Virus record (IMG/VR): IMGVR_UViG_3300016467_000600
Coordinates: 1 to 31,597 of that record
Direction: 5' to 3' (one strand)
Origin: a virus
Taxonomy: Duplodnaviria; Caudoviricetes
Length of the DNA stretch: 31,597 bases
This document shows, piece by piece, positions 1,827 through 29,540 of this stretch. A program made the translations under genes and the position numbers. Under the pieces are notes generated by a model. It saw only the letters and a list, made by a program, of their open reading frames with translations, did no database searches and was not told the origin of the DNA. Every line of letters begins with the position of its first letter. Within the stretch, counting starts at the first letter, position 1.

Positions 1827-1832
1827 TTTGTT

Positions 1833-2423: not shown

Positions 2424-2449
2424 GTTGTTCGTGTGGTTTTGGGTTTGGG

Positions 2450-3304: not shown

Positions 3305-3323
3305 GTCGGTTTTGGGAAAATGG

Positions 3324-3359
3324 AGGCCAGCCGGGGGGTTAAGCCCGGTGGCCTTTTTT
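3324..3359. terminator. Intergenic stem-loop, possibly a bidirectional intrinsic terminator
   Basis: AGGCCA(G)CCGGG...CCCGGTGGCCT stem, followed by TTTTT on the plus strand and CCATTTT on the minus strand. Confidence 0.5.
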
Positions 3360-3369
3360 GGGGTTCGCC

Positions 3370-5510: not shown

Positions 5511-8500
5511 TCACTTACCTTTGTGTTTCGGTTTCGTGATCGCCTCATTTTTGTCGGGCTCCGTCATGGCGTTTGACCACGTCGTGCTATTGGCAATCTG
5601 CGATGCAATCGCACCGGCCACAGGATGGAAGGCCGTGGCCCCGATCACGGCGGCGGCCTTGATGGGCTGTACGGACGCCTTGGCCGCCTGGCGCTTGGCG
5701 TTGTCCTGCGGCTTGCCCTCCATGGCGTTCGAGATGGCCGTCTTGGCGGCACGTGCGTAGCCGATCGCCGCCTGGCCAAGGGGGCCGCCGGGAGGCTGGT
5801 CACGCATCACGTACTTCGTGGCCATCTCGATCTTCGGGCCGAAGATGCCGGCGAACGACGAGGCGTTGAGCCACTTGGTCCATTCCGGATCGTTCTCGTG
5901 CTGTTTGCTGTATTGGGTCGGGTAGAGCTTGTCCTTCAGCTCGAACATCGCACGGAATGCGATCACGCCGAGCGGGGCCATCATCAACGGTGCGAGGAAC
6001 CGGATGCGGTCGCCGACGGTATACGACTTCCCGGCAGGAGCCGACTTGAGGGAGGACTTTGCGTAGTCGTACGCACGTGAGTTGATCTCTGCGGCGTAGG
6101 CATACGAGTAGCTCATGAGCTGGAAGAGCGTCTTACCGATGGGGCCATCCTGGAACACGGGCTTGTGGGCACGGTTGGCACGCACGGACGACTGCATCGA
6201 GAACTTGGTCATGGCGGTCTCGAAGAGCTTGGACATGCGTCCGCCGTTGAGCATGGTCCGCATGCGGGCGGCGTCATCCATGCCCTCAAGGCGCAACATC
6301 CACTTTGCGAAATCGGAGTGATCTGCGTCGTCGATGCCGAGCTCACGGAGGTTGGACTTGACCGACTCGGAAACGTCCAGCCTGTTCATGAAACTGCGAC
6401 CCTGTTGCATCTCGGCCAGGTTGACCAGGTACTTGAACCCGATGGCGTGCGAGGCCTGTAGCTTGGCGTTTTCCGTGAGTTGCAGGAGGTTCGACTGGTA
6501 CACCTTGCTGGTGAGCCAATTGATCCGGGGATCCGACCGGTCTCCGTCGACCTCGATCGAATGGCTGTTCATCCAGGCGTCGTTGATGTCGGCGCTCATC
6601 GTGCCGATGTGCTCTGCGTACTTCTCCCAGAACGTCTTGTCGATGCGTTCGCCGCTGACGATGCGGGCGCCGTTGCGGATCGTCCGTCCCCAGGTCTCGG
6701 CGTACGCCTGGAGGGCCAGGTTGAGGTTGCCGGCCCGCATGCCCATGGAGCCTGGCTCGAACATGTTGTTGAGGAACGAACGGCCCATCACGGAGCCGGC
6801 CGTGTACAGGCCCATTAGGTCGATGAAGGTCTGCTCGCCACGGCTGTTCGGCGTACGGCCGATGCCCACGGACGCCTTCAGAAGGTCACGCATTTCGTCG
6901 ATCTTCTCGTACGAGACGCCCTGCTTCTCCATGTCTCCGGCCATCTTGCGCCACTTCTGGCCTTCGTCGCCGAGGCGACGGACGATCTCGGCGCTCTTCG
7001 TGGCACCGGAGATGTACCTGGAGATGATCCGGTACGGATCCTTGACCTGCCACTTGGACATGATCTGCTGGGCTTCCGGGCCAAAGGTTCGGCTCTTGGA
7101 CGAGTTCTCGCCCATGCTGGGTCCGCCTTCCTCGAAGAAGCTGTTGAACATCCCGGCGCTTTCGCCACGGACGTGCGACATGGTGAGCTCTCGGGCGGCC
7201 TTTTCGGCGGCGTCGTCCAGCTCCTGCCCTTGGAACTCGTTGGCAAGCTCCAGGAGATAGGCCTGTTTGGCGTCGTCCTTGAAGGCCACGGCGTTGTCGG
7301 CGATCCGGATGGAATCGTAGACGGCCGGGAAGTAATCGGCGACGTCGCCAAGCTTCTCGCCGGCGGCCACACGGTAGTCATGGATGTCACGCAGGAGGGA
7401 CTTCAGCCCATTGGCGGCACGACCGGCAGACGTGGACATGTCGATCGGCATGTTGCCGGTCACCATGTCCGCAAACTCACGATAGGACGTCTCACGTGCG
7501 TCACGGCTCATTGCGGCGAACTCGCCACGAAGGGGCTCCATGATGTCGAAGAACCGGTTCATGAGTGCGGTGCGCTCCTTCATGATGGCCGTCGGGAGAT
7601 CCAGGCCGGTGACGCCGGCTTCGGCGCCGGCACGGGCATGGATCATGTTGGCCACGGCCTTGGCGGCCCGGCTCATCGGGAAGTCGTCGGCGATCTGGTG
7701 CGCCTTCGTGCTGATTCCCGTGAAGAAGCGTGCGGTGACGATGTCCTTGGCCAACTCCATGTTGGTCCTACCCGGGGCGACCTTGGGCACACGGAACGGA
7801 GGCTCGCTGACCTCGTCGCCCTCGGACAGCTTTGCGGCGATCGCCTTTAGGCGGGCCTGGCCGTCCTTGCCTTCGCCGATCGGACGGGTGGCGACGTCAC
7901 GCATGGTTTCTGCGTCACCTTCGGACATCTTCACAGGACCGAAGTCCTTGCGGGAGATCCCCATCTCGGCCTTGTCTTTTTTCATGCCGAACCCGTACAC
8001 GTCATACATGTCCGGGGTGTGGATCTGCTTCTCCGTGATGCCTTCGCCCTCGTACTCGACCAGGTCGTAGCCCTGCTTGGCCGCTTCCTGTTTGAGCTTG
8101 GTAAGGAAGTCCGGCGGGAACTCGCCACGACGCATCTCGTGCGAGTCTTCGAGCCACGACTTACCCTCGATATTGCGACCAAGGGAAATCCGGCCACGAC
8201 GCTCAACCGTGCCGTCCTTAGTTACGATCGCCGGCTCGATGCGACCAAGGTACGAGTACTTCGACGGAATCACGCCGAAATCGGAATTGAAACCGCTTTT
8301 GCCGGAAACGATCAGTCGCTGTCCGCTGGGAATACCAAGCCACCCGGCATGACTGCTACGGTTCATGTCGGTGTCATGAATGAAGACGCCCTTGGAAGCG
8401 TCGTATGCGAACAAGCCGTTCTCGAAATTGATATTCATCTGAAGCTGGCCGGCGTCTTCCAGATCTCTGATCAACTTTTCCGGCGGCTTGCCGATGTCCT

Positions 8501-11500
8501 CGCCAAACATGTCCCCTTTGTACTGCAACGGCTCGTGGCCGATATCACCCCAGCCGAGGTTGCTTGTGTTCCTGTTGCGGATGATGCCGCCACGGGAGTC
8601 GAGCCGTTCGCCTGGCCCCAGGGTGAAGCCTAGGTCGGTCTCGCCGTTGTTCACCCGGGCGTTCGGGATCTTGCCACGGGCACGCACCTGGTTCGGGAAG
8701 CGCCCGTTTTCGGCGTCTCCTTCGGAGAAGCGATCTGGACCCGTGCCCTTGGTCGCCGTGGACGTGAAGTCATACCCGGGCATCTCGTCGGCCTTCTTGC
8801 CCATGTAGTCGGCGAGCTTCTGCTTGATTTCGTCACGCAGGTGCTCGTAGTCGGTGCGACCGGCACGATGGTGGTCCATATAAGAGATCCTCGTGACGTC
8901 GCCACGGTCGTCGATCCGGCCGTGCGGAAGGTCCATGATTGGCTGTTTGCCGAAATCACCCTTAATGTTGCCATTTTCCAGATGCGTCTCCCAGTCCGCA
9001 TGCGTCGGGATGTCATCGGATTCGATGAGCTGGTATCCTTCCGGACTATGGGCGTTCCGGAGCTCGTCGGCGCTGATCACCTGGATGTCGCCCTTTTTCG
9101 TGGCGTACCAAAGGTAGGTGTTTTCCTCTCCTTCGGCATCCGTGCGGTCGGCATGGCCGATGTCGGTCCAGAAACGGATCGGCTTTTGACGCTTCACGCC
9201 GGCCGTATCACGCTGGAAACGGTCACGGGCTCCGCCTGGGATGCGCATGTTCTCACCGTCATCGCCCTCGGAGTTGAAGTTGCCACGGTCCAGGCGATTC
9301 GATCGGCGCATGCCTTCGAGCTCGGATTCCGGGTCCGGGCCGGTCGGAGGAGGATTGAGTTCACGGTCTGCCGCCCATTCCGGAGCCGGGTGACCCTGCT
9401 CCTTGTACTTCTTCACGATCTCCTGTCGGCGGGCTTCCTGTTTTGCACGGATCTCACGAATCCTGGGACGGTCCTCGAAGTCCTTGTTGCGAATGTATTC
9501 AAACATGATGCGGAACTCATCCCTGTTTTTCTTATCAGCTGAAATCGAGTTCCAAATGGCCCTTCTTTCTTCCGGCGTTCCGTACAGGTATTTGCGGACG
9601 TCGTTCTCGGAGAACTCCAAGCCTTCGTAGTTCTGGCTGGGGTCGCCTTCGGAGTAGAGCTTCTTCGGATCGATCTTTCCGTTCACATCCCAGGATCTGC
9701 GGACGTATTCTCCGTCGCCGGTCTGCTGTGCGAACTGATCACGGGGGCTGGTCTCCTCGAATCCGTTGTCGGAAATTTCGACGTTCTCCCTGCCGAGAAC
9801 ACGGTTGATCGCATGGATCGGGCGGCCGTTCGGATCGACGACGAAGGCGTTCATATCGCCACCATAGGAGCGGCGGATGCGCTCGACGACCTCGGCCGTG
9901 ATGACGGTCGAGATGTTGCGGTTGCGCCAGATCGGCTGGACCTTGATCCAATCCAGGTCGCCGGTGCCGTCGCCGACGGCTGAGCCAGGCATGACTTTGT
10001 AGATGAAGTCGGCCACCTTCTGGAGCCCGTTCTCGCCGTTGTATTCGATGACGCCGTGGAACTCGCCCATGCCATCGATTTCGCCACCCTCGATGGACCC
10101 TTCGACCTTTGGAAGGTACGTCGGAGCCCCCATCTTAGTGTAACCCTTCTGCTGGATGGTCATCTTCATGCCGGCCATGCTCTTGGCGTTATCCTTGGCG
10201 ACCTGGGTGATGAAGCCACGCTTGGCGAGCTGTACGTCCGTGTGGTTGGCAACCTCGCCGTCCTTGGTCTTCGGGTTGGTGGACGGGGGCGTGGCGATCT
10301 GATCGCCTTCTGAAAGCTTGCGGTTCGGGTCGACATTCGTGAGCACTTCTGCCCCGGAGAACTTGCGCTCGCCGGTATCCTCGTCGACATACGTGTCCTT
10401 CCTGTATGTCGTGGAGCCTTCGCCGAATACGGCCTTTCGGGCCAAGATCGGGCGCATCTTGTCGTCGACAACGTACCCCTCGATCTTGTTGATGCCAAGC
10501 CGTCGCAGTCGTTCTCCGATCTCGGCGTACATCAACTTGTTGAACCCCTTGCCCTGGGCGTTTCCGTACACGTTGGTGGCCTCGAAGTAGGCGACTTTCT
10601 CACGGAGATTGACGCTGAACATGACGTCGCCGAACTTGCTGTTCGGATGGTTCGAGTCCTTGAGGGTCATGACCATGTACCGGTTCCGGTACTGCGATCC
10701 GGGGATGGCTCTGAAGTCGCTCTCCGAATTGACGGCATTTCCGTCGTCGTCGACGAACGTGGCCACAAGGCTATTTCTGAACCTCGGGGAAATGTTCTCG
10801 TCGGCGTATTTCGTGATGAATCCACGGCTCTCCAGGTCTTTATCCTGGTGATTCGGGGTCTTCAGATCGACATCACCCTCCGAGAAGCGCTCCTGGAAAC
10901 CAGGCTCGTATCCGAGGAAATCACGCTCGTACGGTCCTGGGAAACCATAGCCCTCGATCTTGTAGCCGGCCGGAAGCTCGCCCTTCTTTTGCATAAATTC
11001 GACGTAAGACCGGATCTCCTTGAGCGCATCGCTACGCTTCATCATTTCCTCTCTCCTTGCGGAGAAGGCGTCCAGCTTGCCACGGCCCTGGCCGGCCGAG
11101 ACCAGGATGGTCTTGTTCTCGTGGTCGATCTCGATCCGTCCGTTCAAGCCGGTCTTACGGGATTTCAGACCGATGCCTGTCTCGATCCCGTTGCCGCCCA
11201 TGCCATGTGCAAAGTCGTCTGGGCGGGTTGCCTTGACGTTCTCTTCGTTGGCCATGTCGGCCACGTTCCGCACGGTGAACTTGCCCTTGTTGTGGTCATA
11301 CATGTACAAGAAGGTGTCTTCCGGCTTGAAACCGCCGACGTATTCGGCGTTGCCGTAAGCACCTTCGATGTTGCCATGGCCGATGTTCAGATAGGTCTTT
11401 ATCTGCTTCTTCGGGCGGGCGTTCATGGCCGCCTCACGGGCGCCACCGGGGATCATCATGTTCTCGGCGTCGCCTTCGGACTTCCGGGTGTAGTCGTCCG

Positions 11501-14500
11501 GGTAGTTGGAGTCGTAGATGTGAACGAACCGGCTACGCATGTCGTTGGCCATGTCGATCAGCTCCATGCCGGTCTTCTTGCTGGTCATGCCGGCTTGCAT
11601 GGACTTGTACATGGCATCCGTGAACTTCGCATGGTCGGACAGCAGGGCGTTAAGGTAGAACCTAACGTGGCGCATCGGCATGTCATCCTGGACAAAATCG
11701 ACCATGTTGAGGCCGTTTCTGCCGATCTCCTTGAAGGCCGTCATGACGACCTCGTCGTGGATCTTGCGGACCTGCTTGAGCATGCCGGGCTTGAGCGTCA
11801 TCGGGTTGAACCCCTTTTGGCGTTCCATCTTGGCGATCACCTGGTCCAGGACGGCGTGCTTGCCTAGGCGTTCCTTATCACGGGCGATGTCGCCTTCGTA
11901 ATCTCCGCTGTTACCGGGGAACGGGTGCTGATACAGGTGCTGATCGGCAAGCACCTTGACGCTCTTGATCCATCCAAGGAAGTCGCCCTTGATCGACTCC
12001 GGCCCAACGACGGCGTCCTGCTCGAGGGCGCTCTTGGCACGATCGCCGAATTCCTTGGCGTCGCCTTCGGAGAAGTTGGGGTCCTTGAGCATACCACGCC
12101 AGCGGTGGTTGCCGGAGCTGGAGCGTTCCGGGTTGGCTTTGGGCGGCTCAATTTGTCTAACCCCTTGAGCTCCCGTAATCAACTCATTAGGATTTTGAAG
12201 GCCGGCCTTGGCTTGGGTTCTAGCGATACCTCTGGATTCAATGTAACGCACATTATCCAGGGTCTTGTATGACTCATGTCGCTGAATATCCAGGAAGGTC
12301 TTTCGGTCGATCGGGTAGGCGGTCACCAATTCATTCCCATTGGAAGTGACATCAAAAACCATCTGAATGACTTGCGCCTTCGTGGTGCCAATTACGCTAA
12401 TACGGGTATCATTCGGGTTGTAAGGAGACCTAATGCCGTTTCCGAACCCCTGCCCAATTCGGGCGATGCCAATTCGATTGTCGAACGCATCGGATAGGAT
12501 GGCGGTGAGATTTTTGCGTTGTTCCTGGATCGTTGATCCAAGCTCAAACCCAGCACGCTCAAAGTCGGCCCTATGATCCGTCGTCCTCCCGGGGATGATG
12601 TTGCCCTGGGAATCCCTTGCGACACGTGCCGTAAGGATGTGTCCTACGAGCGCACGATCCGGGATGATCAAATGGCCGGATTTCAGATTGAATGCGCTGA
12701 CTTCCTGCCTGGTGAACATCCCACCTTGCGATTCAAGGTCGCTCTCGAACTGCTCAAGCGGAATCTTCACCCTTTCACCACCAGCGGTCGGTTGCGACCC
12801 AGGCGTTGGCGATCCGTTTTTGTCGAACAACGGATGCGGAGAAGAAGGCCAAGGAAAAGTATTAAATACACGGCGGCCATCTTCGGTGAATCCAATATTG
12901 TTGGCTTTGCTGGACGGAACATCCGGGAACGAGTCGCCAGGCATGGCACGCTCCTGGTCTCCTTCGGACTTCCATTGCATCTGGGATGATTCGATGTACG
13001 AATTGTCGTGCGTTGACCAGCCCTGCATCACTTCCCCGTTTCTGGATGAGTCACGATACAGGATCTCGTCGTTCTTTAGGTTGGCCTGTTTTAGGAACCT
13101 GCCCATGTTATTGGTGGCTTCTCCGATGGCTTTCATGGCCGCCTTGTCCTTGCCGTTAACGTCGCCAAAATGGATCGTGGCCCAATTCGTCCCTGCACGG
13201 TCAGCGATGGCCAGGATGGCCTTTTGGGCCGGGCTATTGCGGATATTGGTCATCTGCTCGATGGTCATCGGGTAGACCGCCGTGATGACGCCGCTGTTGG
13301 CCGTGAATACGATGCCGGACTTCTTGCCCATCTGGGCCTCAATGGAATCGTTGTAGGCCGAAAAGCTTATGCGTCTGCCGTTTTTAGGATTCGGTGCGAC
13401 GGCGTCGGTGCGCACGGAACCCTGGCCGTAAGGGATCTGGTTGCGTGACGAATAACGGCGTTCCGTGATCTTGAAGGAATGCGTCTCTTTACCGTCCGAA
13501 ACGGGGATCTGCTGGTCGACCACGGTAAGATGTGGCGCCTTGAGGTACTCACCTACGCCTCCGCCAGGCTGGAAGTCCTTTAGTGGGTTGAAACTGTAAC
13601 GGCCATCAGAGATCGCAAGGGCTCCTCGGAACGTGATGCCGGTTCCGTCAAGGACGTTGCGCAGGGCGTCGACCCCCTCCATACCACGATCGCCGTGGAA
13701 GTCGGTCAATACGCTCGGCTCTCCGTTGTTGATCCGGATGTACCAGGCCTCCTTTGCGCCGGGCGTCGATACGGCCTGGCCGGCAAGCACGCCAACCATC
13801 GGAGAGTACACCATTTCCGATTTTTTGGTCCCGGACAAAGCCTGGATCATGTGAAGTCCGACCTGCAACGGTTTGCCGTTCTTATCCGTGATTAGGATCA
13901 TCAGTTGACCCTGGACGAGATGTCCGGCGTAATCGTCGATGAACATTGCGGCGTCCTTGGCCGACTCGATCTTCGCCACCGGAGACTCGACCTTGCCGAC
14001 AACGGCATGCTCCGAAAATTGGTTCATGTGGCCGGCGTCGATGCCGAACTTCTTGAGCTTCTCGGCAGGGATCGGGAACTTGACGTTCGGTGCGGCGTGC
14101 AATGGCTTGATCTTCGTCGCCCCGACACGGGATTCATGTTCCGTTCGGCCGACGAAGTTCTCGTCGCCCTGGACATCCCCTTCGGACTTCCAATCGTTCG
14201 ACTTGTACCCCCTGGAGATTTCCTCGTTGATCTGACGATGATCGACGTTCCCGCTCCGATCCATGGACACCACGGATTTGATCACCTTTTGAGAGGATCC
14301 AATGGTGATCTGGTCAAACGCACCATTTACGTTTTTTGCCAAATTTTCCTGTACATCAGCAGGGACGTCCTTACCGCCGGTCATAAGGACGACTTGGTGA
14401 GCGCTGGTACGACTGAATGCAGAGACCATTTCACGGGCCCCTTTTCGTCCGAGAGATCCGTTTTCCTTGAAGGCGATCTCATGGGTTCCGACCGGATTGT

Positions 14501-17500
14501 TGTTTTTATCCAAGAAGATCAAACCAGGTTTTTCTCCAAGCGTCTTTGAGGCGAAATCACGTGCATCTTGATAGACGAGGATCTGGGTATCGCTCATCAC
14601 GTCGTGACCTGTGCCACGCTTGAACTCAAAACGTCGTTCGACGATCGGGATCTTGCGCATCTTGTCGCCTTCGACCGGCTTTGACGCATCGACGACACGC
14701 TCGCCAAAGCCCGTGTCCGAGAACGCACTACGATGCTCGCCGGCCTGGGCGAAGAATCCAAGGGGTTTCACGCCCATCTTCTTGAACACCTGGTTCAGCA
14801 GGACATGGGCCACCCTCGTGTCTGGAACCGAAAGTTCCGGCGTTTCGGACGGATGGTTGTGCGTGACCCACACGTGCGCCGCCCCCTTGATGGACACCAC
14901 CTGGGCGGCCATCGCAAGCGAGGACAGGCTTGATGCGCCCGGCTCCGACATGGTGTGACGGATGATCTCAAGCGGCTTGTGGTTTTTGTCCGTCACAAGC
15001 ATCTGGATCGACTCCTGGGTCATGTGCGAGATGTCCCGGAAGGCATGGGTGACCTTCTCCGGGGTATCCATGACATGGAACCCTTCGATGTATCCGATCT
15101 TGCGGTGCTGGACGACGTTGGCGGCCACGGTCCGCTTGATTCCAAGCTTCGCCAGGATTTCGTCCGTACCCTTGGCCGCCGGCGGGTTGGCCGGGTCCAC
15201 GTCGCCTTCGCTAAGGAACCTGTTACTCAGCGTAACCTCGCCGCCTTCTGAACGAATGGCGTCACGGATTCGCTGTGTTTGCTCCGGCGCCTCTTCAAAA
15301 CTTTTCGTGGTCGGGTTCCACCTAAACTGTTGACCATTTTCCTCGGTTGCCAGGATTCCACGAAGGGCGTCATTGATGGCGGCCTCATTGCTACCTCTTG
15401 CCTTGGTGAGCTCTTCGAGAGCGTCGCCAACCTTGCTCGTGTCGATGTCCTTGAGCCGTGTAGCAAGGTCTGACTTGATCTGTGCGTCGGCGGCGATCTC
15501 GCCCTTTCCGGACATTGAAACTTCGCCGAAATTCTTTTCGGCAATACGATCCATGATCACGTCAATCTGGCTTCGCTTCCCGATCAACGCCTCGCCAAAG
15601 CCTGTGGATTGAAGGGCCTTTCGCATGCCGTGGTACATCGACTGGATCATGGCCACGACGTCGTACCACTTCTGGGATCCCCACTTTGAGTCGTACTTTC
15701 CACGATTTCTGATGATCCTTGCGCCTTCGTCGGAGAAGAACTCATGGGCGTCCTTCAAGCGATACACACGCCTTCCGGATTCGCTCTCTTCGTATCCAGG
15801 ACGAAGACGGAAATACGTTGACCCGTCGTCTGCCGTCCTGGCCTCGAACATTCCTTTCGGGATCGGTACGCCGGCTTTTCTCATTTCATCAGCCAGGGCG
15901 GTCATCTGGACCTCGGAGAGCGTGAATTTGTCAAAGTCCCACGTGCTGTCGTTTTCGATCCCAAGCTTGGACAGGATGTAATCCATGGCCTTGTTTGAAG
16001 ACCTGGCTTTGGCTCGTTGCTTGATGAGTTCGGCCTTGATCTCAGCCTGGATCTCCGGCTTCAAGCTCTGGAAGAGCGGGTGTAGGATCTCGTGCGAAAG
16101 CGTAAACTGGAACTTGTTGCGGTTGATTGCGTCGGCGAATACCTTTACGGCGTTAAAGACGCCACGGCCGTCCGTGAACACGGCGTTCGAGCTCCCTAGT
16201 GCGGTGCCGTCACGGCCGCCGATCTGGCGAAGCTGGATGTGCTTGAGAAGCTCTGCACCCATCGTGTCGGCAACCAGGTTTGCCGTGTCATGTGTTTCTT
16301 GGTTGATGATGTTTCTCTTGAGGGCATCGGCCAGAGCCGACTTGATCTGAGTCAAGCCGACTTTCTGTTCCTGCGTTAGGCCAGGCGCAATCTGGGTTTG
16401 CTCCTCGGAAATCCCACGTTCACGTGCGATGTTGCCCGTGACCTCCTTCATCAGCTCTGCTTGTGCCGCCAGCCTTGCGGACTGACGGTCCATGGCTTGG
16501 GCACGGATAGCGTCCCAGGTGGGAGCTCCGCTCATCTTGACGTACGTCGAAGGCTTTCCTCCCGTGGCGTAGGCGGCGGCATTGTGCATCAATGCCCCGG
16601 CACCCCAGGTTTTATGAAGGACGCCGGCGCCAAGCGCAAACTCCCTGCCGGCACTCATGAGTCGATCTCCGATCTCTCCGCCATTCTCAACGGTAGGATC
16701 TCCGAAGCCAAGGGTTCTTGCGGCGGCCGTAAGGCGATCGGTGCCGGGTGCTCCATGCACAAGGGCTTCGGCTGTCGAACTTGCCTGGGCGATGCCCATG
16801 TTCATTAGGCCGCCCTTTGCCACCTGCCTTAGGGCGTTTGCCTGGGTGATGCCGGCGGTCTCAAAACCGGCGGCCGCCTTCAAAAGCGAACCGGACGGGC
16901 GAAACGCAAGCATGGTTGGCGCAAACGAACCAAGCACGGCCGCAGTAGGATTAAGCTGTGCGTTGATGGCATCCTGCTCGCTAGGTTCAATTTTGAAACC
17001 GTATTTCAAAGCGGCGTCAGTTGCGCCGCTGGCAAGCATAGACCCGCCGATACCGGTAACCCACCCAAGCGGCGTCTCAAGGCCGCCGCCGATGGCGGCC
17101 CCAGCCATGAACCCGCCAATACCGCTCAAGGCGCCAGGCGTGGCTCTGATTGCGCTATCCCTTGCGGTTTCAAAAGCGCTAGATCCTGCGGCAAAAGCAT
17201 CAACCTGGTCCGGCGTGAAGCTTTCGATGACGGATTCCTTTGTTACGTCTTTCGGGATAACCTGGCCGGTCTGAGAATAAACAAGCGTTTTTTCGCCAGT
17301 AGGGACCATGCCTTTGGCTTCAAACATTCCCGTGAGCTTATTCCACTTAAGCTGTTTAACCTTACCGCCCTTGTTGATCAGAACATCCTCTCCGTCCTCA
17401 AGCTGTGATACGTTGGCAAGCGTTGCCTGGTTCCATCCTAGCTTATTGCCTACGCTTACGCCCGTATCGACCCCCGGAAGCGGGGAGTTGATGATGGCAT

Positions 17501-17528
17501 CAAGCTGTTGTTCGTTTAGGTTTTCCAT
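5511..17528 (-). CDS. Giant (4005 aa) polyvalent virion/ejection protein: N-terminal region with zincin HExxH, 11 SEGD-delimited internal modules, and a helical C-terminal region
   Basis: Uninterrupted ORF in the position of the largest podovirus ejection protein. Motifs seen: HEILH (aa 479-483), RadC-type HNHPS, GNAT-like QGKGF and RNRNI, and 12 copies of SEGD. Confidence 0.9.
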   Translation of the reverse strand: MENLNEQQLDAIINSPLPGVDTGVSVGNKLGWNQATLANVSQLEDGEDVLINKGGKVKQLKWNKLTGMFEAKGMVPTGEKTLVYSQTGQVIPKDVTKESVIESFTPDQVDAFAAGSSAFETARDSAIRATPGALSGIGGFMAGAAIGGGLETPLGWVTGIGGSMLASGATDAALKYGFKIEPSEQDAINAQLNPTAAVLGSFAPTMLAFRPSGSLLKAAAGFETAGITQANALRQVAKGGLMNMGIAQASSTAEALVHGAPGTDRLTAAARTLGFGDPTVENGGEIGDRLMSAGREFALGAGVLHKTWGAGALMHNAAAYATGGKPSTYVKMSGAPTWDAIRAQAMDRQSARLAAQAELMKEVTGNIARERGISEEQTQIAPGLTQEQKVGLTQIKSALADALKRNIINQETHDTANLVADTMGAELLKHIQLRQIGGRDGTALGSSNAVFTDGRGVFNAVKVFADAINRNKFQFTLSHEILHPLFQSLKPEIQAEIKAELIKQRAKARSSNKAMDYILSKLGIENDSTWDFDKFTLSEVQMTALADEMRKAGVPIPKGMFEARTADDGSTYFRLRPGYEESESGRRVYRLKDAHEFFSDEGARIIRNRGKYDSKWGSQKWYDVVAMIQSMYHGMRKALQSTGFGEALIGKRSQIDVIMDRIAEKNFGEVSMSGKGEIAADAQIKSDLATRLKDIDTSKVGDALEELTKARGSNEAAINDALRGILATEENGQQFRWNPTTKSFEEAPEQTQRIRDAIRSEGGEVTLSNRFLSEGDVDPANPPAAKGTDEILAKLGIKRTVAANVVQHRKIGYIEGFHVMDTPEKVTHAFRDISHMTQESIQMLVTDKNHKPLEIIRHTMSEPGASSLSSLAMAAQVVSIKGAAHVWVTHNHPSETPELSVPDTRVAHVLLNQVFKKMGVKPLGFFAQAGEHRSAFSDTGFGERVVDASKPVEGDKMRKIPIVERRFEFKRGTGHDVMSDTQILVYQDARDFASKTLGEKPGLIFLDKNNNPVGTHEIAFKENGSLGRKGAREMVSAFSRTSAHQVVLMTGGKDVPADVQENLAKNVNGAFDQITIGSSQKVIKSVVSMDRSGNVDHRQINEEISRGYKSNDWKSEGDVQGDENFVGRTEHESRVGATKIKPLHAAPNVKFPIPAEKLKKFGIDAGHMNQFSEHAVVGKVESPVAKIESAKDAAMFIDDYAGHLVQGQLMILITDKNGKPLQVGLHMIQALSGTKKSEMVYSPMVGVLAGQAVSTPGAKEAWYIRINNGEPSVLTDFHGDRGMEGVDALRNVLDGTGITFRGALAISDGRYSFNPLKDFQPGGGVGEYLKAPHLTVVDQQIPVSDGKETHSFKITERRYSSRNQIPYGQGSVRTDAVAPNPKNGRRISFSAYNDSIEAQMGKKSGIVFTANSGVITAVYPMTIEQMTNIRNSPAQKAILAIADRAGTNWATIHFGDVNGKDKAAMKAIGEATNNMGRFLKQANLKNDEILYRDSSRNGEVMQGWSTHDNSYIESSQMQWKSEGDQERAMPGDSFPDVPSSKANNIGFTEDGRRVFNTFPWPSSPHPLFDKNGSPTPGSQPTAGGERVKIPLEQFESDLESQGGMFTRQEVSAFNLKSGHLIIPDRALVGHILTARVARDSQGNIIPGRTTDHRADFERAGFELGSTIQEQRKNLTAILSDAFDNRIGIARIGQGFGNGIRSPYNPNDTRISVIGTTKAQVIQMVFDVTSNGNELVTAYPIDRKTFLDIQRHESYKTLDNVRYIESRGIARTQAKAGLQNPNELITGAQGVRQIEPPKANPERSSSGNHRWRGMLKDPNFSEGDAKEFGDRAKSALEQDAVVGPESIKGDFLGWIKSVKVLADQHLYQHPFPGNSGDYEGDIARDKERLGKHAVLDQVIAKMERQKGFNPMTLKPGMLKQVRKIHDEVVMTAFKEIGRNGLNMVDFVQDDMPMRHVRFYLNALLSDHAKFTDAMYKSMQAGMTSKKTGMELIDMANDMRSRFVHIYDSNYPDDYTRKSEGDAENMMIPGGAREAAMNARPKKQIKTYLNIGHGNIEGAYGNAEYVGGFKPEDTFLYMYDHNKGKFTVRNVADMANEENVKATRPDDFAHGMGGNGIETGIGLKSRKTGLNGRIEIDHENKTILVSAGQGRGKLDAFSARREEMMKRSDALKEIRSYVEFMQKKGELPAGYKIEGYGFPGPYERDFLGYEPGFQERFSEGDVDLKTPNHQDKDLESRGFITKYADENISPRFRNSLVATFVDDDGNAVNSESDFRAIPGSQYRNRYMVMTLKDSNHPNSKFGDVMFSVNLREKVAYFEATNVYGNAQGKGFNKLMYAEIGERLRRLGINKIEGYVVDDKMRPILARKAVFGEGSTTYRKDTYVDEDTGERKFSGAEVLTNVDPNRKLSEGDQIATPPSTNPKTKDGEVANHTDVQLAKRGFITQVAKDNAKSMAGMKMTIQQKGYTKMGAPTYLPKVEGSIEGGEIDGMGEFHGVIEYNGENGLQKVADFIYKVMPGSAVGDGTGDLDWIKVQPIWRNRNISTVITAEVVERIRRSYGGDMNAFVVDPNGRPIHAINRVLGRENVEISDNGFEETSPRDQFAQQTGDGEYVRRSWDVNGKIDPKKLYSEGDPSQNYEGLEFSENDVRKYLYGTPEERRAIWNSISADKKNRDEFRIMFEYIRNKDFEDRPRIREIRAKQEARRQEIVKKYKEQGHPAPEWAADRELNPPPTGPDPESELEGMRRSNRLDRGNFNSEGDDGENMRIPGGARDRFQRDTAGVKRQKPIRFWTDIGHADRTDAEGEENTYLWYATKKGDIQVISADELRNAHSPEGYQLIESDDIPTHADWETHLENGNIKGDFGKQPIMDLPHGRIDDRGDVTRISYMDHHRAGRTDYEHLRDEIKQKLADYMGKKADEMPGYDFTSTATKGTGPDRFSEGDAENGRFPNQVRARGKIPNARVNNGETDLGFTLGPGERLDSRGGIIRNRNTSNLGWGDIGHEPLQYKGDMFGEDIGKPPEKLIRDLEDAGQLQMNINFENGLFAYDASKGVFIHDTDMNRSSHAGWLGIPSGQRLIVSGKSGFNSDFGVIPSKYSYLGRIEPAIVTKDGTVERRGRISLGRNIEGKSWLEDSHEMRRGEFPPDFLTKLKQEAAKQGYDLVEYEGEGITEKQIHTPDMYDVYGFGMKKDKAEMGISRKDFGPVKMSEGDAETMRDVATRPIGEGKDGQARLKAIAAKLSEGDEVSEPPFRVPKVAPGRTNMELAKDIVTARFFTGISTKAHQIADDFPMSRAAKAVANMIHARAGAEAGVTGLDLPTAIMKERTALMNRFFDIMEPLRGEFAAMSRDARETSYREFADMVTGNMPIDMSTSAGRAANGLKSLLRDIHDYRVAAGEKLGDVADYFPAVYDSIRIADNAVAFKDDAKQAYLLELANEFQGQELDDAAEKAARELTMSHVRGESAGMFNSFFEEGGPSMGENSSKSRTFGPEAQQIMSKWQVKDPYRIISRYISGATKSAEIVRRLGDEGQKWRKMAGDMEKQGVSYEKIDEMRDLLKASVGIGRTPNSRGEQTFIDLMGLYTAGSVMGRSFLNNMFEPGSMGMRAGNLNLALQAYAETWGRTIRNGARIVSGERIDKTFWEKYAEHIGTMSADINDAWMNSHSIEVDGDRSDPRINWLTSKVYQSNLLQLTENAKLQASHAIGFKYLVNLAEMQQGRSFMNRLDVSESVKSNLRELGIDDADHSDFAKWMLRLEGMDDAARMRTMLNGGRMSKLFETAMTKFSMQSSVRANRAHKPVFQDGPIGKTLFQLMSYSYAYAAEINSRAYDYAKSSLKSAPAGKSYTVGDRIRFLAPLMMAPLGVIAFRAMFELKDKLYPTQYSKQHENDPEWTKWLNASSFAGIFGPKIEMATKYVMRDQPPGGPLGQAAIGYARAAKTAISNAMEGKPQDNAKRQAAKASVQPIKAAAVIGATAFHPVAGAIASQIANSTTWSNAMTEPDKNEAITKPKHKGK
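7815..15212 (-). repeat. 12 dispersed in-frame SEGD motifs at 15201-15212, 14175-14186, 12957-12968, 12060-12071, 11469-11480, 10872-10883, 10302-10313, 9642-9653, 9261-9272, 8715-8726, 7914-7925 and 7815-7826
   Basis: Each copy was located in the nucleotide sequence. The Ser residues are at aa 773, 1115, 1521, 1820, 2017, 2216, 2406, 2626, 2753, 2935, 3202 and 3235. Confidence 0.95.
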
Positions 17529-19462
17529 TAGTTCGATTGGGTTTTCTGCTTAAGCCTCGCTTTTGCGGCTTCAATTTTTTGCCGGATGAGTTCGACCTGC
17601 TCCGGCGACACCTGGCGTTGCGTGTATCCGCCATTGATGCCCCTCGCCGCATATCCGTTTTTGGAATTGGCGACGATATCCTCCCAGAACTTGATGTCTG
17701 CGGCAAGCTTGACGACGTCCTGCGGAGGCGCCGTTGTTCCGTAATCACGGAACGTCTTGATCAGATCAAGTCCTTGGGTCTTGTACTTGGAGTCACCCTC
17801 CATGGGGAATTGTCCGAGCGCCGCCTCGATCGAGTTTTTGAACATGCCAACCGACGACGGCCTTTGTGCTCCTTCAAGTGCGCCAGTTGCCTTATTTACG
17901 GTTCCACCGATTGCCTCAGCCCCGGAAATCATTTCGGCCGGAGTGAGGTTGTCCTTGTCCCAATGGGTGATTGATCGCTTTTCCCTTTTATCGACAACGT
18001 GAGCATCACCGACGATCTGATAGATCAATTCATAATTACCCTCGAAAGCCTGCCTTACGGCGGATACTGCGACGGTTCTTGCGAAATCCGGCGCAAAGCC
18101 ACGCTGTTCGAGTTTAAGTCGAACATCATTCGCTTCCAATGCGAGACGTAGGGCATGTTCTTTGCTAAGCGGCGTGTCCTTGGACGGAGAAAGTTGATCT
18201 ATGAAAACTTGAGAAAGACCTTCGGTCCATGCCCTATCTGAGTTCATTTTTTCAACGCTTTCCTTGTAGTTCCTAGGAACGCTCGGATTTTCCATCCTAA
18301 ACAATTTCTCAATCTCATCCGGAGCCAGCGACCTCTTGTCCGGAATGACAGGTTCCGGTGGCGTGATGGGGTCTGGAACCCATCTTGTTCCTCCGCCAGG
18401 TAGCTGTTCGAGTTTGCCGGTCGGTCTTTTTGCGGCGGCCTCGAATTGGGCTTTGTTCGCCTTGTTCAGCGTCTCCATTTGCGACTTGATGGCTTTGGTG
18501 AACAGGCTTGCGACGCTCTGATCTTTGAGCGGATCAGATGGTTCATCATCCGGCTGTGATGCTGGAGATGTGGTCGTGGCAGGTGTTTCCGTCGTTGCGG
18601 CAGACGAAACTGAAGACATCCCAGGTTGAGGCCCTGGAAGGCTTACGGGAGTGAAGTTGAAGCTTGCTCCGGGTGTTGAAAACGGAGTCGGGGGCTCGCT
18701 TGAGGTTCCAGGTGCGGCCGCATTTGCGGAAATCATGTTTGCCACGACGTTGGCGGATTTATCCGGAGATGCGGGGGGTGGCTCCGAACTTGGCTTAGTC
18801 ATCAGCTTCGATGGATGATTCGGACCAACAAGCTTGGCGCCAGGGTTGAGCGGATCATCAAGAGCTCCAACTTGAGCAGCAGCTTCAGCGTTGCCCATGG
18901 CGTTTGACATGATCTGACGACGAATCGAGTCATCGACGTTCTTCTTTGACTGATCCGATGGGGTTATGCCTCCGGAAACAGCCTCAAGCCCCTTTCGTGA
19001 AGCAAGATTAGCTTCTGAGTCAGTTAGGTGTTTGTTGGTAGGCGCCGCATTGGTTAGGAACTCGTGCCACTTGGTGGCAAAGTCCGGACCGTATAGGGCC
19101 ACTCCGTTTGACATGATATCGCCAACACGTGATTGATCGAACTCAAACAAACCACGATCCTTGTTCCACGACATCACGGGCTTACCTTGGGCAACCGTGT
19201 CAACCGGCCATTGACCCTGGTTTTCGCCATGATACGGGTCATACTCGGTATCCGGAACCTGTCCTCCTCCGCTGAAAAGCTCACGCCAGGACTGCCTAAA
19301 CGGATCAAGCTCACGATCACGATCTGCTTCACGACGTGCTTGTTCCAGCTTGAGCTGGTTGATCTCACGGTTCTGCTGGTACTGTCGTGCCTCGGCGTCG
19401 GCCTTCGGGTTGCCCCAAACGTCAACCATGAGCTTGGCAATGTTGTCAATTTCGCTGGCCAT
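17528..19462 (-). CDS. Putative internal virion/ejection protein (644 aa) with central Pro/Ser/Thr-rich linker
   Basis: Lies between the gp14-like gene and the giant gene, and its stop overlaps the giant gene's start (TAATG). No recognisable catalytic motif. Confidence 0.6.
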   Translation of the reverse strand: MASEIDNIAKLMVDVWGNPKADAEARQYQQNREINQLKLEQARREADRDRELDPFRQSWRELFSGGGQVPDTEYDPYHGENQGQWPVDTVAQGKPVMSWNKDRGLFEFDQSRVGDIMSNGVALYGPDFATKWHEFLTNAAPTNKHLTDSEANLASRKGLEAVSGGITPSDQSKKNVDDSIRRQIMSNAMGNAEAAAQVGALDDPLNPGAKLVGPNHPSKLMTKPSSEPPPASPDKSANVVANMISANAAAPGTSSEPPTPFSTPGASFNFTPVSLPGPQPGMSSVSSAATTETPATTTSPASQPDDEPSDPLKDQSVASLFTKAIKSQMETLNKANKAQFEAAAKRPTGKLEQLPGGGTRWVPDPITPPEPVIPDKRSLAPDEIEKLFRMENPSVPRNYKESVEKMNSDRAWTEGLSQVFIDQLSPSKDTPLSKEHALRLALEANDVRLKLEQRGFAPDFARTVAVSAVRQAFEGNYELIYQIVGDAHVVDKREKRSITHWDKDNLTPAEMISGAEAIGGTVNKATGALEGAQRPSSVGMFKNSIEAALGQFPMEGDSKYKTQGLDLIKTFRDYGTTAPPQDVVKLAADIKFWEDIVANSKNGYAARGINGGYTQRQVSPEQVELIRQKIEAAKARLKQKTQSN

Positions 19463-19466
19463 TTTG

Positions 19467-20090
19467 TTATGCTGGTTTGGATGGTTTGACGGCTTCGCCG
19501 CCCTTGGCGCCGGCTTTGGAGGCGGCGATCATGGCGCCGGCCTGGAGCAGAGATCCGATCTCGGACATGCCGTTGGGGCGCTGGGCGGCTTCGGCCTCGG
19601 TGGCGAAGGCGTTGGTGGATCCGGCGGAGAAGTTGCCGATGCGACCCATGTTTTCCCCAAACCTGGCGTTGGCCAGATTGTTGGTCTGCTGGACGTCGCC
19701 GTAGGCCTTGATGAGGGCGTCGTTCTTGGCGTTGTTGATCGCCAGGTTGTTGGCGTCTCCGATCCGGACACGGTTGGCGTCCGCAACGTTACCGGCGGTT
19801 CCGAAGGCGTTCTTGAAGTTGGCGACCTGGTCCGTGTTCATGGCGCCACGCATCGACTCGAAACGGTTGGCGTTTGCCTTGGCCAGAAGTTTGGCTTGCT
19901 CGGCCGGAGAAGCGTGCTTCATCGAGCGGCTGAATTCGGCGTCAGATTCCTCCTTGAGCTTGCCTTGACGCTCCGCCTCGGCGGCGGATGCGGCCTGGAG
20001 CCGTCCTTTGGCGATCTGATTGCTACGGGCTTTTGCGGCCGCACCGGCAAGCGACATACCAAGAGCCGTCCATGACATTGGTTCACACAT
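19467..20090 (-). CDS. Internal virion/ejection protein, T7 gp14-like
   Basis: MCEP N-terminus followed by a hydrophobic Ala/Gly segment, an Ala/Asn-rich helical body and a hydrophobic C-terminal patch, in the expected position. Confidence 0.7.
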   Translation of the reverse strand: MCEPMSWTALGMSLAGAAAKARSNQIAKGRLQAASAAEAERQGKLKEESDAEFSRSMKHASPAEQAKLLAKANANRFESMRGAMNTDQVANFKNAFGTAGNVADANRVRIGDANNLAINNAKNDALIKAYGDVQQTNNLANARFGENMGRIGNFSAGSTNAFATEAEAAQRPNGMSEIGSLLQAGAMIAASKAGAKGGEAVKPSKPA

Positions 20091-20095
20091 GGCCT

Positions 20096-20686
20096 TTAAG
20101 AGTCACGGAAGCCGAACATTCCGGCTCCGCCGGCGGCTCCCTTGGGGTTATCGGAATATCGCTTGCCCATTTCGGCGGCGCCATAGATCCCAAGACCTCC
20201 GGAAATGATGCCGGCAAGCGGGTTGGTGGACATTTGGCTGGAAAGCGTGTTGACCTTGTTCATGGCGTTTCGTCCGGCCTGGAAGGCCTGTTCTCCACCG
20301 TTGAGCTGTGCAACGAGCTGATTCCGGTTTTCGGCAACCGTGTTTCGGAGCTGATTGCTCTGGTCGATGGCCGAGCTGGCGATCTCTGCGGCCTTTGCGT
20401 TGTACGCCCCCTGGAGCCCGCCGGCTACGTTGGCGGCGTTGCTTGAGTCGGTCATGCCTTTCGCCGCCAGGGACATCTCGGCGCTGTTCTTCTCGCCCGT
20501 GAAGGCGTTGTTCAACAACGGGGTCGCCTGTTTGATGAAGGCGTTTTCCCGCTTCTTGAAGAAGTTGTCGTCGAAGCCGGCGAACTGCTTGTCTATGGCG
20601 GCGGTTCCTTCACGGATCCGCTGTTGGCGTGCGGCCTCATCTGCTCTTGCTTGAGCGGCGCCGCCGTCTCCAGATGGTGCACACAT
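20096..20686 (-). CDS. Putative small ejection (DNA transfer) protein; likely start MCAPSGDGG
   Basis: Ala/Gln/Asn-rich helical protein with a Gly-rich hydrophobic C-terminus. The ATG at 20686 is preferred over the track's longer start, which lies deep inside the upstream gene. Confidence 0.65.
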   Translation of the reverse strand: MCAPSGDGGAAQARADEAARQQRIREGTAAIDKQFAGFDDNFFKKRENAFIKQATPLLNNAFTGEKNSAEMSLAAKGMTDSSNAANVAGGLQGAYNAKAAEIASSAIDQSNQLRNTVAENRNQLVAQLNGGEQAFQAGRNAMNKVNTLSSQMSTNPLAGIISGGLGIYGAAEMGKRYSDNPKGAAGGAGMFGFRDS

Positions 20687-21171
20687 GCTTGCAAGTGTGG
20701 TCGTGATACCGGTCGAATCCAGCTGAAAGTATAGAAGGTCTCGCCGTTCCTGCCGAAGTTGATCGCCTCCGACTCTTTGGAGGCCCCTAGCATCTCGAGC
20801 CACCTATGGGACGTTTTGTTTTCAGCCAGGGATTTGCATTCGGCACGGTGATATCCGACTTCCTCCAGGGCCGGGGTCATGATCTTCTTGATGAACCTGG
20901 TCACGGACAGCGAAACCTCCGGCCAGCGATCCGTGGCGAACATCCAGACCGACCAAACGCCGTTCCACATGGGAACCGCACCGAACGCAGATACGGGGGT
21001 ACCGTCGTCGGCGCACGCAATCCACCCGAAATCGCCGCAAGCCAGGATGGCGTCCGCAAGATCATCGCCATTTTCGGTCCATCTTGTGGCAAACACCTCA
21101 TTTTTGTCGGACATTCGCAGGTTTTCTGCGATGAACGACACGTCTTTTTTGTTTATCTGTGAAAAGTACAT
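20593..21171 (-). CDS. GNAT-fold virion-associated protein (T7 gp13-like); likely start MYFSQINK
   Basis: The ATG overlaps the nozzle stop (TGATG). Motifs IAENLR.SD..E, VWMFATD and N..SHRWLEMLG are present, and it sits after the nozzle gene. Confidence 0.75.
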   Translation of the reverse strand: MYFSQINKKDVSFIAENLRMSDKNEVFATRWTENGDDLADAILACGDFGWIACADDGTPVSAFGAVPMWNGVWSVWMFATDRWPEVSLSVTRFIKKIMTPALEEVGYHRAECKSLAENKTSHRWLEMLGASKESEAINFGRNGETFYTFSWIRPVSRPHLQACVHHLETAAPLKQEQMRPHANSGSVKEPPP

Positions 21172-23798: not shown

Positions 23799-24499
23799 CA
23801 GTAAAGCCGGTCATCCCGGACAAATCGACCGCCGATGATACGGAGACGCTCGCCCTTGTCGTTGCCGCCGCCATAGAGGAAGCGATCGTTCTTCAAGGCG
23901 AGGCCCTTGAGCTTGTTGTAATGGGCCGTGGCCTGGGCCATTTTGATCGGGGCGTCCGTGGCCTGGTTGCGGCTAAGGATCTCGGCGGCGGCAAACAGGA
24001 CGAGCAGAACGTCGTCAAGGTCGGCCTTGTCCGTGTCGGAGATGAGGGGAGCCAGCTTCCTGGTGCCACGGAAACGGATGATCTGGTTGTTGTCCACGGG
24101 CACCGGCCATACCTCGAACATGTTGTTCCCGTCGTGTTGCCAGCGGATCACGGGGTTCGTGCCGACGCCACGATCCGAGTCAAACGTGTTGTATTGGGCC
24201 GGACTGATGCCGTACTCGATCGGGTGCCAGATGTTGTTGTACTTCACCCAGGCGTTAGTGACACGGTCAAACTCCAGGTCGTCCGGGAATGAGTACGTGC
24301 GCTCGTTGACGAGCAACGGCTCATCACGGTTGACGACGGCCCAGGGCCATTCGTGATCTGACCACAAACGTTTCTGGACACGTGACAGCAGGAGGTCGTA
24401 CTGCTCGACGGTGTTGACGCCCATCTGGGCGTTGGAGGATACGCCGATCTCCGCACGGAGCATCTGGCGTAGCTCCAGAAGTGACGTTCCTCGGGCCAT
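23798..24499 (-). CDS. Head-tail adaptor / tail tubular protein A-like; likely start MARGTSLL
   Basis: Helical N-terminus, W.W motif, YSFPDD, WPVP and LLVLFAAA patterns typical of podovirus adaptors. The ATG at 24499 lies 1 nt after the upstream stop. Confidence 0.75.
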   Translation of the reverse strand: MARGTSLLELRQMLRAEIGVSSNAQMGVNTVEQYDLLLSRVQKRLWSDHEWPWAVVNRDEPLLVNERTYSFPDDLEFDRVTNAWVKYNNIWHPIEYGISPAQYNTFDSDRGVGTNPVIRWQHDGNNMFEVWPVPVDNNQIIRFRGTRKLAPLISDTDKADLDDVLLVLFAAAEILSRNQATDAPIKMAQATAHYNKLKGLALKNDRFLYGGGNDKGERLRIIGGRFVRDDRLY

Positions 24500-24500
24500 A

Positions 24501-24806
24501 TCAGTTGGCGGTTTCGGCCGCCTTGGCGGCCTTCGGGGTTTCGATGCCAAGATCCTCGAAGGAGGCCGGAAGCTTGGGCATGGTGCCAGGGAAGACCTTG
24601 GTCACGACGTCGGCGCCATAGAACAGCTTGAGGCGTTCCATCTCCTCGCCGCTGGAACGGCGGACGGAGTTCACGTCGGACAGGTTGAGGACGGCATCGG
24701 AGCCGTGGATCTCACGGAGGATGGCGACTTCCGGGGCGGACACCGTACGGACGACGGAGTGCTGGAGGTTGCCGTTGAGGAGGATTTCGGCGAGTGCGAT
24801 CTGCAT
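24501..24806 (-). CDS. Hypothetical virion-module protein (101 aa)
   Basis: Fills the gap between capsid and adaptor genes and has coding-like codon bias. Confidence 0.7.
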   Translation of the reverse strand: MQIALAEILLNGNLQHSVVRTVSAPEVAILREIHGSDAVLNLSDVNSVRRSSGEEMERLKLFYGADVVTKVFPGTMPKLPASFEDLGIETPKAAKAAETAN

Positions 24807-24841
24807 GGTGAGACCATCCTGTCCCGGCGGGATGGACCTGC

Positions 24842-24880
24842 AACAAAGAAAAGGGGCTGACCCGTTAGGATCAGCCCCTT
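24842..24880 (-). terminator. Rho-independent terminator after the major capsid gene
   Basis: AAGGGGCTGATCC-TAAC-GGGTCAGCCCCTT stem followed by TTCTTTGTT on the minus strand. Confidence 0.85.
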
Positions 24881-24898
24881 GGTGCTATGGACTCCGGA

Positions 24899-25975: not shown

Positions 25976-25987
25976 GGTAGTTGTTCG

Positions 25988-27040: not shown

Positions 27041-27046
27041 AAGGTC

Positions 27047-27074
27047 ATGTTCGCATTGTCCTGTAATAGATCAA
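27047..27074 (-). promoter_or_regulatory. Candidate promoter TTGATC-N17-AACAT, 6 nt upstream of GTG, overlapped by inverted repeat TAATAGA-N6-TCTATTA (27064-27083)
   Basis: Same spacing as 5483-5510. It lies in one of the few intergenic gaps. Confidence 0.4.
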
Positions 27075-27080
27075 GCTCTA

Positions 27081-29222: not shown

Positions 29223-29527
29223 TAGAAATTGCGGGTATATCCGATGTTGGCCTGGGTCATCGGAAACTGCCCCATGGTGCGGTTGACGGATGCGTTGAAT
29301 CCGCCGTTCTGGTAGTTTACGCCGACATTCGGCGCAACAAATGGCTTCATGCCAGGTACGAGCGACGCATTCACTCCGGCGTTCAGATCGACGCCACGGA
29401 TTGCGTTCGGATACATGGCTTGAAGGCCAAGATTCACGCCGCTCATGCCTTGCGGCATGCCAGAGATCGATGCGGCCAACGGATTGAGCTTCTGGCCGGT
29501 TGAAAGCATCGGGATGTTCTCGTTCAT
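29222..29527 (-). CDS. Hypothetical 101-aa Gly/Asn-rich beta-strand protein
   Basis: Fills the terminase-portal gap and its stop overlaps the portal ATG (TAATG). Confidence 0.65.
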   Translation of the reverse strand: MNENIPMLSTGQKLNPLAASISGMPQGMSGVNLGLQAMYPNAIRGVDLNAGVNASLVPGMKPFVAPNVGVNYQNGGFNASVNRTMGQFPMTQANIGYTRNF

Positions 29528-29540
29528 GGCGTCATGTTCC

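Follow-up and report, generated by a model that had tools for sequence, protein, structure and literature searches.

The window analyzed here, a stretch of 31,597 nucleotides that is the complete viral record IMGVR_UViG_3300016467_000600 (Duplodnaviria; Caudoviricetes) and covers about 69% of the genome, carries a module of podovirus virion genes: those of TerL, a portal of the P22 type, a capsid protein and an adaptor that are both SU10-like, and an internal virion protein. This module closes with a giant gene coding for a 4005-residue protein in which the tetrapeptide SEGD (hereafter the tag) recurs at the seams between modules. The product is a phage polyvalent protein in the position of an ejection protein: a single phage-encoded chain, in a phage gene context, combines several biochemically diverse conflict domains (a RadC domain above its cut-off, a GNAT profile match and an HExxH domain), and its domain architecture is mosaic and variable among relatives. 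From synteny and from weak homology to annotated virion proteins we infer that it is located in the virion; the initial annotation had called it an ejection protein, with which the synteny and the homology of its C-terminal domain are consistent, packaging and delivery themselves being presumed.

The tag occurs 12 times in the giant protein, against 0.11 occurrences predicted from composition, and the top count of any 4-mer in 300 shuffles of the protein did not exceed five; likewise, a de novo gapped-motif scan scored SEGD at 17.2 versus a null maximum of 9.6. All 12 six-frame matches in the window fall inside the giant gene, and no tag was found in the capsid, scaffold, portal or other open reading frames (ORFs) of at least 150 aa in the window and six loci. 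The copies start at aa 773, 1115, 1521, 1820, 2017, 2216, 2406, 2626, 2753, 2935, 3202 and 3235, spanning aa 773-3238 at uneven intervals of 342, 406, 299, 197, 199, 190, 220, 127, 182, 267 and 33 aa and leaving the first 772 and the last 767 residues free. Their contexts are RFL-SEGD-V, DWK-SEGD-V, QWK-SEGD-Q, PNF-SEGD-A, TRK-SEGD-A, ERF-SEGD-V, RKL-SEGD-Q, KLY-SEGD-P, NFN-SEGD-D, DRF-SEGD-A, VKM-SEGD-A and AKL-SEGD-E. Number, confinement, range, intervals and contexts all agree with the initial annotation, which had further counted about ten cargo proteins; we find 10 cargo-sized segments plus one 33-aa spacer, release from the chain being a proposal. The claim that paralogous modules run in register with the tags also stands (M1/M2, M5/M9(/M10) and M6/M7; Table 1).

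Table 1. Features of the giant gene and of its surroundings. Coordinates are those of the window; fractions refer to the 20 proteins of the close group.
Feature	Coordinates	Strand	Basis or distribution
Giant polyvalent protein, likely large ejection (internal virion) protein	5511..17528	minus	4005-aa ORF; last and largest gene of the TerL-portal-major capsid protein (MCP)-adaptor-nozzle-internal protein module
N-terminal region (aa 1-394), Gly/Ala-rich, variable, tag-free	16347..17528	minus	sequence
Predicted zincin-like metallopeptidase (MPTase), ~aa 395-690	15459..16346	minus	motif conservation, alignment across clades
Tag 1 (aa 773)	15201..15212	minus	sole tag with AGC serine codon; kept in 18/20, SEAD in 2
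M1, JAB/RadC module, HxH-x7-S-x2-D motif intact	14187..15212	minus	PF04002; in 20/20
Tag 2 (14175-14186) and M2, JAB/RadC paralogue without HxH motif	12969..14186	minus	tag in 20/20
Tag 3 (12957-12968) and M3, hypervariable slot, nuclease-like by motif only	12072..12968	minus	three exchangeable types, I/K/M
Tag 4 (12060-12071) and M4, 197-aa module, family unnamed	11481..12071	minus	module in 20/20; tag in 20/20
Tag 5 (11469-11480) and M5, unnamed 'A' family	10884..11480	minus	alignment
Tag 6 (10872-10883) and M6, GNAT-like	10314..10883	minus	profile match
Tag 7 (10302-10313) and M7, GNAT-like paralogue of M6	9654..10313	minus	profile match, paralogy
Tag 8 (9642-9653) and M8, optional 'H' module, 126-127 aa	9273..9653	minus	in 11/20, positions differ
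Tag 9 (9261-9272) and M9, A family	8727..9272	minus	alignment
Tag 10 (8715-8726) and M10, long A-family module	7926..8726	minus	tag in 19/20
Tag 11 (7914-7925) and 33-aa spacer	7827..7925	minus	redundant tag, decayed in most relatives; kept in 7/20
Tag 12 (7815-7826) and conserved ~770-aa C-terminal domain	5511..7826	minus	tag in 20/20
Podovirus morphogenesis module, upstream of the giant gene	17528..31591	minus	three unannotated genes in ejection-protein position, then internal virion protein (phrog_308), putative nozzle, adaptor, MCP, putative scaffold, portal, TerL

The C-terminal region, used as a query, recovered 49 proteins of 2.2-4.4 thousand residues, the giant protein itself included; 20 of them form a close group at 76-100% identity. 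Every member of this group keeps the boundary tag, with 8-13 copies each, in line with what the initial annotation would expect of homologues; the remaining 29 proteins have none in 28 cases and one in P0030. At seams present in all 20 proteins, the tag is kept in 18-20 of them, and its type is uniform within a protein: 16 have only SEGD, four only SEDD and none a mixture, while the locus L017 has 10 seams at which the residue after SED is D, A or S. Hence, the motif is better written as hydrophobic/basic-S-E-[G/D]-D and is lineage-specific rather than universal; the de novo scan of the most distant proteins gave scores near the null level. The one pair of tags lying only 33 aa apart is instructive: that at aa 3202 has decayed in 13 of the 20 proteins and that at aa 3235 in none, as would be expected if one site per seam suffices. 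An intact HExxH/E domain accompanies the tags in all 20 proteins.

The codons bear on the level at which the tags are maintained. In all six genes examined, of both SEGD and SED type, the serine is encoded by AGC at tag 1 and by TCN at the others, and third positions vary; thus, the G/D change struck both codon classes site by site rather than by way of a copied 12-mer. Judging from these patterns, selection at the tags acts on protein and not on DNA. The tag codons are nonetheless slightly more alike than expected (p 0.02; context-matched p 0.01), with TCN serines in 58 of 64 tags, an excess that fits a spread of the TCN tag by duplication. The preference for GAA in the tags (47/64) equals the gene-wide bias before GG (96/135). 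DNA-level homogenization was considered as the main cause and rejected on account of the free third positions, the gene-wide nature of the GAA bias and the reach of the switch to the AGC-coded tag 1.

Around these fixed points the architecture is fluid. Splitting the 20 proteins at their tags yields 14 segment clusters; the H module comes at different places, the copy number of the A family differs, both GNAT modules are missing from some proteins (P0010, P0019, P0020, all SEDD proteins), and slot 3 is filled by one of three alternative module types. To keep the comparison from being circular, the tags were masked before alignment; of 44 ends of insertions and deletions of at least 80 aa, 33 are then no more than 15 aa away from a tag, versus 12.8% for random positions, in a sample of 16 pairs that we picked out of 210 possible and in which the events are not independent, several pairs sharing one event. 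The other 11 ends are away from tags, mostly in the most divergent pairs. The nearest relative differs from module to module, and gains, losses, duplications and relocations run from tag to tag, as befits the expectation that module content would vary at motif boundaries. In runs X3 and X5, contigs of related phages have breaks or joints at or close to 9642, 12074 and 15212, all of them tag coordinates; one X5 contig joins 9257 to 9642, which would correspond to the H module, the intervening letters being not known, and other joints in these runs fall away from tags. The peptidase unit seems itself to have been exchanged at tag 1: identity of the segment aa 1-772 ranges over 34-81% among relatives, and the query segment (15213-17528) is 81% identical to that of P0004 and 36-37% identical to those of P0002 and P0003, two proteins with 85-95% identity in the later modules. 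Elsewhere in the window (53-3789, minus strand), downstream of lysis-like genes, lies a replication module with an SF2 helicase, an SSB-like protein and a Sak4-like annealing protein, the last of which could drive module shuffling via short homologies.

As regards the modules themselves, the RadC/JAB assignment is borne out by M1, which scores 35.4 bits against Pfam PF04002 (cut-off 22.1) with the HxH...D motif present; M2 is 25% identical to it (E 1e-7) and has no Pfam match of its own. The GNAT claim is supported for M6 and M7 by a profile match to PDB 5i0c, YjdJ (E 3e-5), and by P0039, a protein with a homologous module that passes PF00583. In contrast, the call of a BECR nuclease for M3, a resemblance in motifs, was confirmed by neither Pfam nor PDB. 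The A family (M5, M9 and M10; 7926-11480) shows invariant G-H, H and G-R motifs in alignment and is likely to be an enzyme; several copies per protein are seen in two clades. It has no PDB match, an Atlas search with M5 gave nothing above 0.82, and no homologues of 95-489 aa or 490-2000 aa were found at E<=0.001, in what is a weak search as the known members sit in longer proteins. The C-terminal domain retrieves 682 cluster representatives at E<=0.001 and is also found in other giant phage proteins, including InPase- and ART-PolyVal-bearing ones; it is 20-22% identical to a virion structural protein of KPP25 (22%) and to the giant protein of Microcystis phage Mae-Yong1326-1. PDB sequence searches with this domain, the peptidase, the A family and slot 3 returned no meaningful match, the best being designed helical repeats.

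The candidate for the enzyme acting on the tags is the predicted zincin, with HEILH at aa 479-483 (16080-16094) and a putative third ligand at E596 (15741-15743). Residues H479, E480, H483 and E596 are invariant in all 20 proteins of the close group, and the distal Glu aligns across clades, so that the region has the predicted form of a zincin-like MPTase, namely an HExxH helix and a conserved Glu on a later helix. This is the signature given for the MPTases of polyvalent proteins in the text consulted of PMC5512222. With an Atlas feature score of 0.96 the peptidase is linked to unnamed clusters, in one of which 18% of the members carry LPD23. Hence, the initial claim of a zincin holds at the level of motifs, and no Pfam or PDB match accompanies them. 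At four peptidase columns (~aa 453, 522, 588 and 600), one residue is common to all five SED-type proteins and absent from the 16 SEGD proteins, and one of these columns lies four residues past the third ligand; these are candidate specificity positions, though kinship could explain them.

Beyond the close group, other tags appear to take the place of SEGD. A second clade, with about 45% identity in the C-terminal region and mostly an HExxxH peptidase, uses the same A, H and GNAT modules, and A-family matches outside the close group are preceded by an E-P-G-x-x-Y type motif in 44 of 47 cases (background 2.2% per window), the module starts in clade 2 being homologous and not independent observations; the three exceptions begin deep in the profile. 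Residues of the form [G/D]-D-[A/G]-E-N after the tag are common to the close group and clade 2. In a third clade, S-x-R-D occurs 60 times versus 13.6 in shuffled sequences (22 proteins); the patterns of both clades were defined after inspection of the boundaries, and the counts are to be read as post hoc. Tag types follow the peptidase clades in a quick tree, in which the HExxxH motif served in part to assign the EPY label, making that label circular for the short rows. In P0030, a single case, HExxH is missing and the tag ahead of the C-terminal domain is lost; at aa ~1240-1470 it has a different peptidase-like domain, with E replacing the first His, and no seam tags around its A-family-like module.

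These clades also present some features of their own. In clade 2 (P0033-P0044, e.g., the giant ORFs of L019, L022 and L028), a second motif, L-F-N followed by R, Q or A, is found on either side of the peptidase unit and ahead of the C-terminal domain, while E-P-G-x-x-Y marks the cargo modules, such that two readers are possible. Ten consecutive A and then a G interrupt the giant gene of four clade-2 relatives immediately behind the RadC modules, leaving two ORFs that a -1 shift rejoins (L023:13011, L024:12945, L025:12618 and L026:13323, with L024 ending at the run); at L027:3235 there are eleven A, in frame. The A-run is a candidate for programmed frameshifting, transcriptional slippage or phase variation, or else a shared assembly error.

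We propose, at somewhat better than even confidence, that the S-E-[G/D]-D tags are self-cleavage sites for the predicted zincin of the same chain. The steps of this proposal differ in strength: there is a strong case in the sequences that the tag is dictated at all seams by a single protein reader, and a moderate one each for the reader being a protease and for that protease being the in-chain zincin. Briefly, we advance the following mechanism. Loading would act on the uncut polypeptide, by way of the conserved ends of the chain; the tag would open each of about ten swappable modules, and the protein's own zinc protease would cut the chain there into separate effectors, either during head maturation or after ejection. 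In-frame recombination near the tags could then add or drop effectors with no need for new packaging signals. A protease fits best as the reader because the tags lie only between unrelated modules, the redundant tag decays and HExxH is present in all 20 tagged proteins; further, the tag is in no other virion protein and no other protease was found, the search for other peptidase families having covered, incompletely, 20 ORFs of the window and a further 30, most of them belonging to relatives. Two single cases agree with self-cleavage: P0030, where both HExxH and the tag ahead of the C-terminal domain are missing, and the virion RNA polymerase (vRNAP) of coliphage N4, which stays whole and has no repeated 4-mer tag (top count 3).

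Several observations weigh against this proposal. The predicted peptidase has no zincin match in Pfam or PDB, and the N-terminal segment that contains it is only 34-48% identical to that of most SEGD relatives despite an unchanged tag. Single-site variants of the tag (SEAD, SADD, SEND and SQDD) exist, and GNAT-module matches outside the close group have a tag before them in only 4 of 24 cases. The choice of SEGD or SEDD agrees with the tree of the C-terminal domain (one side, support 96) no less well than with that of the peptidase, and a single origin of the G/D switch is not rejected (approximately unbiased test, p 0.36); since one event suffices, any co-evolution of tag and protease is without independent replicates. 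Finally, N4 vRNAP, ArdC and TraC1 carry MPTase domains and yet, in the sources consulted, stay full length.

Some of these same points favor the main rival view, that the tag is an uncut docking or handling signal, bound by the C-terminal domain, the portal or ejection channel, or a chaperone, the protein remaining whole; such binding would keep a chain of beads-on-a-string layout ready in the head and pass it on down the tail. Unprocessed ArdC and TraC1, the agreement of tag state with the C-terminal domain tree and a peptidase region that diverges far more than the tag speak in its favor, a single binding partner would equally force whole-protein switching, and the HExxH-bearing N4 vRNAP is described, in the text available, as full length with flexibly linked subdomains (PMC13434306). 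We regard it as unlikely, though deserving of attention: N4 vRNAP lacks a repeated tag, the tags of the giant protein are limited to the seams of unrelated enzymes with uneven spacing (33-406 aa) and spare both ends, and some E-P-G-x-x-Y relatives have a frame break ~40-50 residues past the tag that could give a separate N-terminal product. If instead the tag is cut, the scissors might be another enzyme, a phage head protease encoded outside the window or a host protease. This is improbable in our estimate. The window leaves room for such a gene, clade 2 has what look like two motifs (E-P-G-x-x-Y and L-F-N) that could imply more than one reader, and the Hydrophobic-x-Glu of the tag resembles sites of the T4 gp21 type; but cargo processed by head proteases of the T4 gp21 or phiKZ type is not what is seen, as the other virion ORFs have no tags and no prohead protease was found in the ORFs scanned of ~69% of the genome. 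Moreover, a conserved host protease fits poorly with lineage-specific changes of the tag.

Two readings dispense with both zincin and docking partner, and we consider each very improbable. The repeat might go unread by any protein and serve merely as a hinge for recombination in the DNA, or be left over from the duplication of modules, toward which point the slight excess of codon likeness, the prevalence of TCN and short nucleotide repeats around the tags; it sits poorly with the codon evidence given above and with the flanks of unrelated modules, which share nothing besides the tag. Alternatively, the invariant Ser (Tyr in clade 2) might be a modification site or the nucleophile of an acyl-shift self-cleavage. 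Ser is found in 156 of 156 distinct contexts, though by definition of the pattern, and S-x-x-D is common to the close-group tag and the S-x-R-D of the third clade; against such a role, no kinase or transferase of this kind was found, acyl-shift cleavage usually depends on a special fold at every site, and the modules flanking the tags are unrelated.

The self-cleavage reading has precedents. Iyer, Burroughs, Anand, de Souza and Aravind proposed in 2017 that the MPTase frees individual domains autoproteolytically after packaging or injection (PMC5512222); accordingly, the self-processing polyprotein put forward in the initial annotation is not new as an idea, and what has no published counterpart in the literature searched is the seam motif, most subscription journals and the 2017 supplements lying outside that coverage. 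Among the matches listed, literature hits to 'SEGD' deal, judging by title and opening of the abstract, with T4-like phage genomes and seg homing-endonuclease genes. Like the giant protein, the polyvalent proteins of that paper are mosaic multidomain proteins with MPTase-like, RadC and GNAT domains, and the HExxxH variant of clade 2 is also described there; neither a boundary motif nor a cleavage site is given in its main text, among the matching places listed, whereas here a fixed tag stands at every seam, changes throughout the protein at once and gives way to other tags in other clades, with three modules belonging to an unnamed family. According to the same text, the MPTase-bearing virion protein DdrB of phage P1 is proteolytically processed before packaging, in one event whose site and enzyme are not identified, as against 11-12 candidate sites in the giant protein.

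N4 vRNAP (gp50) shares with the giant protein its size, a podovirus ejection role that is likely for the latter, an HExxH domain and the beads-on-a-string layout; it differs, going by the text of PMC13434306, in being handled full length, and in having an RNA polymerase domain, which the giant protein lacks. N4 was not among the matches of the peptidase profile search at E<=10. Among crAss-like phages (phi14:2 gp65, gp66 and gp67, and fused polyproteins), the fused virion polyprotein is said to be 'likely cleaved', with a zincin-like domain as candidate (bioRxiv 10.1101/2020.03.07.982082); the phage group and the cargo are other, and the portion consulted states no motif. The polyvalent protein gp47 of phi24B was detected in virions and is proposed to be an ejection protein, its peptidase being assigned by the authors, in the text seen, to peptidoglycan (bioRxiv 10.64898/2026.04.10.717836). 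Closer at hand, Mae-Yong1326-1, the nearest cultured phage by TerL (52.6%), shares the gene order. Its giant protein, related in the C-terminal domain, contains two HExxH motifs and lacks the cargo modules as well as any repeated tag dispersed along the chain. No relative turned up when contigs of bacterial and archaeal genomes were scanned twice. Within the morphogenesis module (20096-21183), two genes are drawn too long in the ORF list: the probable start is near 21183 for the phrog_308 gene and at an internal ATG for the gene that follows.

In more general terms, we consider it a possibility a little short of even that these podoviruses inject a programmable effector polyprotein, whose own zincin reads a lineage-specific seam code (SEGD, SEDD, S-x-R-D or E-P-G-x-x-Y), tag and protease would form orthogonal co-evolving pairs, and any module recombining in behind a tag would be packaged, injected and freed as an enzyme. 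What the family adds is the whole-protein switch of the tag, its replacement before homologous modules and the many tag-bounded gains and losses. The hypothesis of autoproteolysis in polyvalent proteins has lacked a named site since 2017; this family gives 12 exact candidate sites and, in SEGD and SEDD, a natural near-cognate pair, plus a non-cognate clade, which make that standing hypothesis directly testable. If true, it would explain how about ten enzymes are delivered at once through a narrow tail and how they are quickly swapped; it would also define the module boundaries for expressing early effectors, including the unnamed three-copy family, and would point to these phages as a source of site-specific metalloproteases that read short tags.

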